64,000 bases of DNA from Acetobacteraceae bacterium (GTDB taxonomy: Bacteria; Bacillota; Sulfobacillia; JAIMBG01), in the NCBI GenBank assembly GCA_023511555.1, contig JAIMBG010000001.1, positions 961-64,960 on the forward strand, given 5' to 3'. Below the pieces are notes generated by a model that saw nothing but the letters and a program-made list of their open reading frames with translations, was not told the DNA's origin and did not search any database. This document shows positions 14,493 through 15,674 of this stretch, piece by piece. Position numbers and translations under genes: made by a program. Each line of letters begins with the position of its first letter. Within the stretch, counting starts at the first letter, position 1.

Positions 14493-15674
14493 TCAGCCCT
14501 CCTCTGCCTTGCTTTGACTTTGATTCTTCCACGCCGTGAACCTGGCCTCCACCTCCGTGGCCGATAGCGCCGGGGCCAGCGCCCGCCATCCCTCTATCAG
14601 CCCGTCGCGCTCCTCCCCGCTAAGCGGCCGGAACTCGGCGGCGTCCACCAGCAGGCGGCTGCCCCGAACCCTGTAGTCCCAAATGCCCACCACGCGGCCC
14701 CTGGACCACAGCGTGGCGGCGACAAATCCCCCCGGCAGGAACAGCCGTTGACGCCATGCGTCGTCGACGAAGCGCTGCCGGTCCTTGAGCCCCAGCACCA
14801 GGGGATCGAAGCGCGGCAGGGGGAAGGCGGTCCGCGACGGCTTCACCGCCGCGAGAGCCGGCATGTCCGCGGCCAGCATAAGGAGGGGCCTTGTCGAGCC
14901 CTCTACCTCCACCTCGGCTACGGCTTCCCCCAACCTGCGGCGTGCGTCCTCGGCCGGCCCCACCCGGTCGAAGCCCGCCCAGTAGGCGAAGTCGGCGGTA
15001 GACGCCGGGCCGTAGGCCCGAAGGTACCGGCGCAGCAGCTCCGCCCTGGCCCGGCCAGCGGCCTCTTCCGGCGCCCCGGTGGGCGACTCCAGTGCCGTCT
15101 CCTCCACCCAGTCCTTGAGCCAGGTCCTGGCCAGAGCGAAGCGGGCCTCGTTGCCCTCGGGCTCGGCGTGGACCAGGAACCCTAAATAGCAGAAGTCCTT
15201 CACGTCCTGCCCCCACTGGGCCCCGGGGATTCGGGCCAGGTCGGGGACCAGCTCGTGGAGCCGACGCCGCGTGGCGGGACCCTGCTCCAGCGCCCGGGCC
15301 ACCTTGCCGGGCAGCGCCTCTATCTCCGCGGGGCTGAACCCGCACTGGGTGAAGAACGCCTGGTAGCCCGCCCCGCGCGGCCTCATGACGGCGCCCAGGA
15401 ACAGGGGGAGGTCCCGCGACGCCAGGAGGTGCAGCGTGCCCCGCATGCACCACACCTTGACCAGGGCCCTCCGCTCATAGAGCTCCTGCTCGAACCGGGC
15501 CCGGTCGTAGCCCGCGACCCGCGCCGCCGCCGACATGGCGGCGCTGGTGAGAAGCTGGGCGTGAAGCCCCAGCACACTTTGCGCCGCCTCCGCCGCGTCC
15601 GCCAGGGCGGCGCCGGGGGCCAGCCCGTGCCGCTCGATGGCTAAAGCCGCCGCCTGTTCCAGGGGGACCTTCAT
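14493..15674 (-). CDS. Winged-helix DNA glycosylase of the YcaQ/AlkZ family
   Basis: ~390 aa, the size of YcaQ/AlkZ (interstrand crosslink/alkyl-lesion glycosylases). A candidate H38-A39-Q40 motif lies at the position of the AlkZ catalytic Q-Phi-Q. Recalled from memory; not profile-searched. Confidence 0.55.
   Translation of the reverse strand: MKVPLEQAAALAIERHGLAPGAALADAAEAAQSVLGLHAQLLTSAAMSAAARVAGYDRARFEQELYERRALVKVWCMRGTLHLLASRDLPLFLGAVMRPRGAGYQAFFTQCGFSPAEIEALPGKVARALEQGPATRRRLHELVPDLARIPGAQWGQDVKDFCYLGFLVHAEPEGNEARFALARTWLKDWVEETALESPTGAPEEAAGRARAELLRRYLRAYGPASTADFAYWAGFDRVGPAEDARRRLGEAVAEVEVEGSTRPLLMLAADMPALAAVKPSRTAFPLPRFDPLVLGLKDRQRFVDDAWRQRLFLPGGFVAATLWSRGRVVGIWDYRVRGSRLLVDAAEFRPLSGEERDGLIEGWRALAPALSATEVEARFTAWKNQSQSKAEEG

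Follow-up and report, generated by a model that had tools for sequence, protein, structure and literature searches.

What is an AlkZ-like DNA glycosylase doing in the middle of a run of apparently biosynthetic genes? The question is raised by an open reading frame (ORF) at positions 14493–15674 on the minus strand of a 64,000-nucleotide stretch of contig JAIMBG010000001.1 (GenBank assembly GCA_023511555.1), hereafter called the window. An earlier note on this DNA had described the ORF as a YcaQ/AlkZ-family glycosylase and a possible self-resistance marker. Sequence, motif, tree and fold support its assignment to the AlkZ-like glycosylases (AZL) of the HΦQ type, and not to the YcaQ-like proteins (YQL). 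Its integration into a biosynthetic-type cluster, with which it has been co-inherited in three lineages, is well supported. By analogy with characterised relatives, the gene may serve in self-resistance, excising adducts of the cluster product from the DNA of the producer; of the explanations considered this is the likeliest, although the odds on it are about even.

Family, fold and catalytic motif of the glycosylase

The ORF has an ATG start and codes for 393 amino acids, the stop codon being included in the coordinates. The predicted protein matches the Pfam profile PF06224 (DNA glycosylase AlkZ-like) at E = 1.6e-52, with 179.6 bits against a cut-off of 25.9 bits, over residues 33–365, which correspond to profile positions 3–325 of 329. 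NCBIfam has no model for it. A homologue search returned an identical protein of 393 amino acids (P0001), encoded on an NCBI contig of 66,120 bp, whereas a look-up by exact sequence gave no record. The architecture is that of class 1, with one HTH_42 domain in Pfam and no fused helicase or other domain, and no second HTH_42 paralogue was found in the window. The sole relative in the PDB by sequence is AlkZ (5UUJ), with E = 4.9e-23 for the single sequence and E = 4.9e-98 for a family profile of 83 sequences. An AlphaFold2 (AF2) model built on an alignment of 83 sequences had a predicted local distance difference test score (pLDDT) of 94.6 and a predicted template modelling score (pTM) of 0.93. 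The top Foldseek match of the model was also AlkZ 5UUJ (template modelling (TM) scores of 0.80 and 0.85, E = 1.5e-25), on which it superposes over its full length, followed lower down by AlkX/YcaQ bound to DNA (9ZD6, TM 0.66–0.69) and by the C-terminal domain of Lhr (TM 0.55). The predicted fold is one of three winged-helix domains and a C-terminal beta domain, with a concave DNA-binding surface. The family named in the earlier note is thereby confirmed, AlkZ being the best match both by sequence and by fold.

The same note had placed H38-A39-Q40 at the position of the catalytic Q-Φ-Q of AlkZ and had given Q-Φ-D for YcaQ. In the HMMER alignment these three residues pair column for column with Q-A-Q of AlkZ, so that the HxQ match is not spurious. 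Both of these motifs are correct: the AlkZ motif is Q41/Q43 in the tagged chain of 5UUJ, which would be Q37/Q39 if a four-residue N-terminal tag is assumed (375 against 371 residues), and that of Escherichia coli YcaQ (NC_000913.3) is Q45-I46-D47. Alignment to the two proteins thus classes the motif as HΦQ and not QΦD. Within the clade of eight to which the protein belongs, H38 and A39 do not vary and seven members have Q40; the remaining member (P0004) has Pro at this position, giving HAP. In the 83-sequence homologue alignment Q40 is found in at least 90 %. A census of 117 homologues gave 76 with HxQ, 29 with QxQ, approximately 11 with an AZL2-like motif and none with QxD.

The protein was aligned with AlkZ by BLASTP over 343 amino acids (28 % identity, E = 3e-25) and with YcaQ only over a fragment of 54 amino acids (E = 0.003). 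In a neighbour-joining tree rooted on YcaQ, for which AlkZ and YcaQ rather than the published Streptomyces set were the references, the glycosylase lies in the eight-sequence HΦQ clade, within a larger group that contains AlkZ. The complete motifs of this larger group end in Q, apart from one QxT and the HAP of P0004.

Three subfamilies have been distinguished by motif, AZL with (Q/H)ΦQ, YQL with QΦD and AZL2 with HΦ(S/T)(D/E) (Bradley et al. 2022, PMC9040887), of which the AZLs are enriched in biosynthetic gene clusters (BGCs; PMC9040887). The sequence H-A-Q-L does not conform to the AZL2 motif, nor H-A-Q to that of YQL. YQL proteins are highly conserved, have a fixed housekeeping neighbourhood and never occur in BGCs (PMC9040887), none of which applies here: identity drops from 65 % to 34 % after eight sequences, and the neighbourhoods of the relatives all differ. 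The motif, the grouping on the side of AlkZ and the location in a biosynthetic-type cluster all agree with an AZL. Histidine in the first position does not make the motif a degenerate one, since TxnU4 and LldU1, the resistance glycosylases for trioxacarcin and LL-D49194, carry H43-Φ-Q45, and TxnU4 H43A and LldU1 Q45A are inactive (PMC8934636). The earlier note had also considered that the protein might group with housekeeping YcaQ; it does not, and its relatives outside the cluster are found in three unrelated neighbourhoods with no common housekeeping context.

Compared with characterised enzymes, the protein resembles AlkZ, which provides self-resistance to azinomycin B in Streptomyces sahachiroi, in being a single-domain protein encoded inside a cluster, with the motif at the same position. 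It differs in that the identity is only 24–28 %, in having H-Φ-Q where AlkZ has Q-Φ-Q, and in a C-terminal tail of approximately 12 amino acids that is tied to the ribosome-binding site (RBS) of the next gene; AlkZ unhooks the interstrand crosslinks of azinomycin. With TxnU4 and LldU1, compared here by their published description, it shares the HTH_42 family, the H-Φ-Q motif and a gene inside a biosynthetic cluster. The products of those clusters alkylate guanine N7 through an epoxide, and a QueA-derived epoxide could supply like chemistry. However, TxnU4 and LldU1 are actinobacterial enzymes whose clusters make aromatic polyketides and usually encode a further AZL paralogue, whereas the glycosylase here is present as a single copy in a peptide/QueA cluster of a spore-forming member of the Bacillota. 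HedH4 of the hedamycin cluster is likewise an AZL encoded with the pathway for a DNA alkylator, a bis-epoxide; it acts specifically on the cognate adduct and provides resistance, but it carries Q41-Φ-Q43 and its cluster is an actinobacterial one for a polyketide. E. coli YcaQ (AlkX), a YQL, shares the superfamily fold and differs in its Q-Φ-D motif and in the short BLASTP match given above.

Position of the gene in a conserved block

On a 263-kb contig from JGI (L006) the whole set of genes is found in the same order, with an AlkZ-like gene of 382 amino acids between the genes for a Gfo/Idh/MocA oxidoreductase (Gfo) and for the solute-binding protein (SBP) of a Liv-type ATP-binding cassette (ABC) importer. 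Protein identities between the window and this contig are 54–87 %, and that of the AlkZ-like protein is 66 %. The nearest AlkZ-like homologue (P0002, 65 % identity) is encoded on a 4.3-kb contig (L005), again in the same order: the cluster-specific protein unk671, a short-chain dehydrogenase/reductase (SDR), Gfo, the AlkZ-like protein and the Liv SBP. The DNA of L005 and L006 is only 79 % identical. Two metagenome contigs, L035 and L036, are from the same species as L006. Three lineages (the window, L005 and L006/L035/L036) carry the glycosylase in the same slot, SDR-Gfo-AlkZ-like-Liv SBP.

The block starts at a gene for a major facilitator superfamily (MFS) transporter, since the genes upstream of it on L035 and L036 are unrelated to the GNAT and second MFS genes found there in the window. 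Beyond the opposite end of the block there is a Tad pilus locus in the window and an SSF transporter gene on L006. Since neither flank is the same in the window as in the L006 lineage, the conserved unit is window 9845–35451, a co-linear minus-strand run of approximately 25.6 kb with the MFS gene first and the Liv importer last, and the glycosylase gene lies in its interior. It is therefore not at the end of the array, where the earlier note had put it: the five Liv importer genes continue beyond it on the same strand, within the conserved block.

The start codon of the glycosylase overlaps the stop codon of Gfo (ATGA), and the Liv SBP starts 4 nt past the glycosylase stop, its AGGAGGG RBS lying inside the last glycosylase codons. 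The three cluster orthologues have in common the C-terminal tail, ending in ..EG, that encodes this RBS, and the stand-alone relatives are without it. The ratio of non-synonymous to synonymous substitution (dN/dS) between L005 and L006 was 0.39 for the glycosylase, within the range of its neighbours (SDR 0.27, unk671 0.34, Gfo 0.59); purifying selection on the glycosylase is about as strong as on these genes. By its sequence context, the gene is a fixed and translationally coupled member of an operon-like block. A promoter and terminator scan of the region from 9.5 to 24 kb gave counts not above those of shuffled sequence and was therefore uninformative on operon structure.

Two more distant variants of the cluster were also found. 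A search with QueA paralogue 2 of the block gave two cluster-type relatives at 76–77 % identity and then matches at 48–51 %, most of which are ordinary genes of sporulating Bacillota in the order queA-tgt-yajC. Two of the matches at 48–51 % define a second cluster, type B (L037, which is L008 extended, and L009, L015 and L016), the arrangement of the window being type A. The order in type B is DinB_2, AMP-ligase, QueA, PqqD, peptide, carrier protein, B12-radical S-adenosylmethionine (SAM) protein and QueA, followed by an aldo-keto reductase (AKR/ferredoxin), an SQHop-cyclase-like protein, Gfo, MFS and a distant homologue of unk671. The genes of type A that are absent from type B include those for the APH kinase, the 5'-nucleotidase-like protein and the glycosylase. 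The third variant (L038, on a contig of 49 % GC) was found by the search with unk671 and contains a carrier protein, an unk671-like gene, two family 4 (GT4) glycosyltransferases and an SDR.

A candidate peptide product and the possible role of the glycosylase

The ORF of 25 amino acids at 22083–22160 (minus strand) reads MKAYVKPLCAKVELFKELTLSCKLM; it has a TTG start, the RBS GGGAGGTG and a GC-rich hairpin downstream. A peptide gene of 24–25 amino acids is also found directly after the PqqD-like gene on L006 (~7530–7608), L008 (~8362–8436) and L015 (~11360–11434), and the type-B peptides, VKSYRKPELKSVELFKEVTLSCKMT and VKTYSKPGIKPIDLFKEVTLSCKVS, are of the same family. The consensus of the family is K-x-Y-x-K-P-x(2-3)-K-x-[VI]-[ED]-L-F-K-E-[LV]-T-L-S-C-K-x-x, with several conserved Lys residues. 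The gene is unannotated and NCBIfam has no model for it. Judged by these features, the peptide is probably the precursor of a RiPP (a peptide made on the ribosome and modified after translation). The best NCBIfam matches of the PqqD-like protein are PqqD chaperones of the lasso type, all below their cut-offs. A lasso peptide, suggested by PqqD, the asparagine-synthase-like enzyme and a possible transglutaminase-like domain, was considered and rejected: the peptide has only 25 amino acids, type B has no asparagine-synthase-like gene and the lasso matches in NCBIfam are far below cut-off.

The PqqD and peptide genes are flanked by the two QueA paralogues, which are annotated by NCBI as ordinary tRNA QueA but barely reach the NCBI cut-off for QueA (332 and 326 bits against 324). 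Of 113 columns that are at least 97 % identical in 114 housekeeping QueAs, paralogue 1 retains 75 and paralogue 2 retains 84, 26–34 % having been lost. Types A and B have in common the derived changes Q34R, L350Q, L355R and S384E/D, the absence of R258 and a replaced PLPP segment. The pattern suggests a retained fold with a changed, non-tRNA acceptor. The possibility that one of the two is the housekeeping copy was rejected, as both are present in every cluster copy, flank PqqD and the peptide and carry the derived substitutions, while the true queA adjoins tgt-yajC. In the known QueA reaction, SAM donates its ribosyl moiety to the primary amine of preQ1, and an epoxycyclopentanediol is formed (PMC5699537). 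The literature searched on QueA together with PqqD, RiPPs or precursor peptides contained nothing relevant. The cluster, for which there is no curated NCBIfam model, looks very rare and undescribed, and more novel than the glycosylase.

In a self-resistance role the protein, as a monofunctional glycosylase, would act like AlkZ, HedH4, TxnU4 and LldU1. It would attack bulky N7-alkylguanine adducts or crosslinks in intact duplex DNA by hydrolysis of their N-glycosidic bond, leaving an abasic site for base excision repair. The source of the damage would be the QueA chemistry, by which an epoxy-dihydroxycyclopentyl group from the ribose of SAM would be placed on a primary amine. The acceptor would most simply be an amine of the Lys-rich peptide presented by the PqqD chaperone, and the adjacent SDR and Gfo/Idh/MocA dehydrogenases could oxidise the diol beside the epoxide, giving a stronger electrophile. 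Produced together with the pathway, the glycosylase would rid the producer's DNA of the adducts so formed. By this analogy a DNA-damaging product is plausible, as are its electrophilic nature, a DNA adduct as the substrate of the glycosylase and the resistance role itself. A complete scheme can be drawn up, although it is unlikely to hold in all its parts: the block would make a new ribosomal peptide, two neofunctionalised, PqqD-guided QueAs would put SAM-ribosyl epoxy-cyclopentane units on amines of the 25-amino-acid peptide (core ...LFKELTLSCK..), the dehydrogenases would oxidise these units to warheads, the product or a late intermediate would alkylate or crosslink DNA, and the HΦQ glycosylase would be the dedicated immunity protein.

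Several points weigh against a product-specific role. Reactivity of the cluster product with DNA is an inference from the QueA and glycosylase genes; to our knowledge the epoxide of epoxyqueuosine in tRNA is stable and is not known to alkylate DNA, and we know of no DNA-alkylating or genotoxic RiPP that has been described. No other repair gene (AP endonuclease, UvrA-like or nuclease) was found in the block with Pfam. The five other members of the eight-sequence clade, with 46–57 % identity to the window glycosylase in the alignment, lie outside such clusters, and the three of them with usable contigs are stand-alone genes in three unrelated neighbourhoods, which means that this AZL lineage is not restricted to the cluster. 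The contigs of the stand-alone relatives have 61–67 % GC, compared with 72–74 % in the cluster hosts. No AlkZ-like gene was seen in type B, in approximately 18 kb of L037 (about 8 kb of the contig, Ga0598253_0001227, being unread) or approximately 12 kb of L015, or in the third variant within 10 kb downstream. Type B has the same precursor family and the pair of QueAs, so that a glycosylase might be expected there too if the QueA-derived group were the genotoxic element; the distribution places the glycosylase in a gene set specific to type A and not in the shared core. The DinB_2 gene of type B is a partial counterweight, since DinB hydrolases, like ABC transporters, are among the defence genes reported beside AZLs in genotoxin clusters; it is conserved, with 61 % identity between two lineages whose upstream flanks differ. 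Finally, only three lineages carry the gene and they are fairly close (54–87 % protein identity), so that shared ancestry explains part of the synteny.

The main rival explanation is an enzyme for the repair of alkylated DNA in general, which became fixed in the operon, perhaps together with the Liv importer, and was co-inherited with no specific relation to the product. In favour of it are the stand-alone relatives, the lack of an AlkZ-like gene in the DNA available for the distant variants and the relatedness of the three lineages, whose synteny could be inherited. Most Streptomyces AZLs, moreover, lie outside BGCs: only 68 homologues are in uncharacterised clusters, and about one-fifth of AZLs are, on the authors' estimate, in BGCs predicted to make a DNA alkylator (PMC9040887). 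This explanation is nevertheless considered doubtful, because the gene is internal to a block that has different flanks on both sides in different lineages, is coupled translationally on both sides, with a C-terminal tail that has co-evolved with the RBS of the next gene, and experiences purifying selection similar in strength to that seen for the biosynthetic genes. In addition, family members with a general-purpose role are of the YQL or AZL2 type and are found outside BGCs (PMC9040887), and the glycosylase here is neither.

A direct part in biosynthesis or salvage is improbable. The enzyme would in this case cleave, by hydrolysis, an N-glycosidic bond in an intermediate linked to a nucleotide or nucleic acid, acting with the APH kinase and the cytoplasmic 5'-nucleotidase-like phosphoesterase, which like the glycosylase are confined to type A, and the native acceptor of QueA is a nucleic-acid base. 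Characterised HTH_42 enzymes, however, all act on duplex DNA across a concave surface and have no nucleobase pocket, and the superposition of the model on AlkZ is a full-length one. Moreover, the peptide gene and the PqqD chaperone indicate a peptide substrate, and Pfam annotation of the block revealed neither tgt/DpdA nor genes for preQ0/preQ1 synthesis. Very improbable is a catalytically inactive winged-helix protein that binds DNA as the regulator of the operon, even though the fold has three winged-helix domains and Pfam revealed no dedicated transcription factor in the block. H-A-Q is kept in all three cluster orthologues and nearly all relatives, we know of no HTH_42 protein that is a regulator, and a late operon position with translational coupling is atypical of one.

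If the complete scheme should hold, three things would be new: QueA chemistry that is used outside tRNA, a RiPP that is genotoxic and, in Bacillota, a resistance glycosylase of the AZL type that is tied to a RiPP; each would be the first of its kind. AZLs are already used as resistance hooks for genotoxin clusters, mainly polyketide and non-ribosomal peptide synthetase (NRPS) clusters of Streptomyces. Here the glycosylase is the sole gene of the block that hints at how the product acts, and it leads to a testable hypothesis, that of a DNA-reactive, epoxide-bearing modified peptide. Should this be wrong, the protein would still be an AZL outside the Actinobacteria, and the cluster would still be a good place to seek new SAM-ribosyl chemistry that acts on peptides.

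Genes of the block, neighbouring loci and the host

Genes were called from Pfam annotation and their starts were refined against orthologues (Table 1).

Table 1 Features of the glycosylase gene and of the conserved block, in window coordinates
Feature	Position	Strand	Basis
MFS transporter, first gene of the block	34105..35451	-	PF07690; 71 % identical in L035 and L036
5'-nucleotidase/metallophosphoesterase-like protein, no signal peptide	32618..34108	-	PF02872, PF00149; 64 % identical in L035
Three tandem family-5 SBP paralogues, no signal peptides	27809..32595	-	PF00496 in all three; conserved in L035 and L036
PP-binding carrier protein, 80 amino acids	27563..27805	-	PF00550, 21.7 bits against a cut-off of 20.8; 76 % identical to an 86-amino-acid ORF of L006
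AMP-binding (adenylate-forming) ligase	26014..27555	-	PF00501, PF13193
Asparagine-synthase-like ATP-dependent amidotransferase or cyclase	24578..25996	-	PF00733; sub-threshold NCBIfam macrolactam/lasso cyclases
APH-family kinase, start approximate (from the L006 orthologue)	23556..24548	-	PF01636
QueA paralogue 2	22490..23566	-	PF02547, E = 2e-105
PqqD-like peptide chaperone (RiPP recognition element)	22180..22470	-	PF05402, E = 5e-19
Candidate precursor peptide, 25 amino acids	22083..22160	-	TTG start, RBS, downstream hairpin; conserved in L006, L008 and L015
QueA paralogue 1 (SAM ribosyltransferase-isomerase family)	20960..21994	-	PF02547, E = 2e-97; 84 % identical in L006
unk417, 417-amino-acid protein with HETGH (HExxH)	19700..20953	-	No Pfam, NCBIfam or PDB match; 57 % identical in L006
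unk671, cluster-specific 671-amino-acid protein	17629..19644	-	No Pfam, NCBIfam or PDB match
SDR	16873..17613	-	adh_short, E = 2.3e-59; 83–87 % identical in L005 and L006
Gfo/Idh/MocA oxidoreductase	15671..16876	-	PF01408, PF22725; syntenic in L005 and L006
AlkZ-like (AZL, HΦQ-type) HTH_42 DNA glycosylase, 393 amino acids	14493..15674	-	ORF, PF06224, 5UUJ match, AF2/Foldseek
Codons of motif residues H38-A39-Q40 (CAC GCC CAG)	15555..15563	-	Sequence; aligned with AlkZ Q-A-Q
Liv-type ABC importer: lipoprotein SBP (13343–14488), two permeases, two ATPases	9845..14488	-	Pfam; 70–73 % identical in L006

The carrier protein ORF lies between the last of the family-5 SBP genes and the AMP-ligase gene, where it is masked by an over-extended ligase ORF (26014–27645) that overlaps it. 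The protein is conserved, with 86 amino acids in L006 and 98 in type B. No permease genes of the Dpp/Opp type are found alongside the family-5 SBP paralogues and the 5'-nucleotidase-like protein, which are probably cytoplasmic and, judged by sequence, may bind the peptide or intermediates rather than take part in transport. Extracellular activation of a prodrug by a secreted phosphatase was considered and rejected, as the 5'-nucleotidase-like protein has no signal peptide. The lipoprotein signal of the Liv SBP is LAALWGC. The Gfo of the window (401 amino acids) contains an Ala/Gly/Pro-rich insert of approximately 65–80 amino acids at about residues 187–264, which is absent from the 337-amino-acid orthologues of L005 and L006, and in tblastn the window sequence splits into two segments around it.

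Neither unk417 nor unk671 had a sequence match in the PDB or a model in NCBIfam, and unk671 had no match among plasmids. With its metalloprotease-like HETGH motif, unk417 could be the leader peptidase. A word-indexed search with unk671 returned the protein itself and one match at 63 % identity (L006), while an exhaustive search of 1.84 billion cluster representatives found 51 that match at E ≤ 1e-10. These relatives mostly have 570–600 amino acids and match residues ~256–650. Two remote ones have sub-threshold matches to a transglutaminase core in the region aligned to residues ~500–630. Scans of genomes and metagenomes with the single sequence of unk671 or of the 5'-nucleotidase gave no match, whereas alignment queries did match. 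The AF2 model of unk671, made from two sequences, had a pLDDT of only 36.4 and was unusable.

A RimL-type GNAT gene (35339–35929, minus strand) and a second MFS gene (36356–37765, minus strand) are found upstream of the block and are absent beside the cluster in the L006 lineage. The earlier note had listed QueA-type enzymes, a GNAT and efflux pumps as neighbours of the glycosylase; two QueA-family genes, the GNAT and two MFS pumps are indeed present, but the conserved block includes neither the GNAT nor the second MFS, which may be lineage-specific additions or unrelated neighbours. At the opposite end, next to the ABC ATPase, a Tad/Flp pilus locus is encoded on the other strand (2573–9683, plus), with CpaB, a ParA-like ATPase, a CpaF-type ATPase, two TadB/C-like proteins, the Flp pilin and TadE/G-like proteins.

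Three plus-strand regions of the window (58166–62100, 55574–57467 and 45523–48353) hold spoIIIAA, spoIIIAB, spoIIIAE and the genes for EF-P, PrsW and a split glycine-cleavage P protein. Among QueAs of the housekeeping type, the nearest relatives are from Bacillota and Limnochordia. Together with the spo genes, these relatives indicate that the host is an endospore-forming member of the Bacillota with approximately 72 % GC, despite the NCBI name 'Acetobacteraceae bacterium'.

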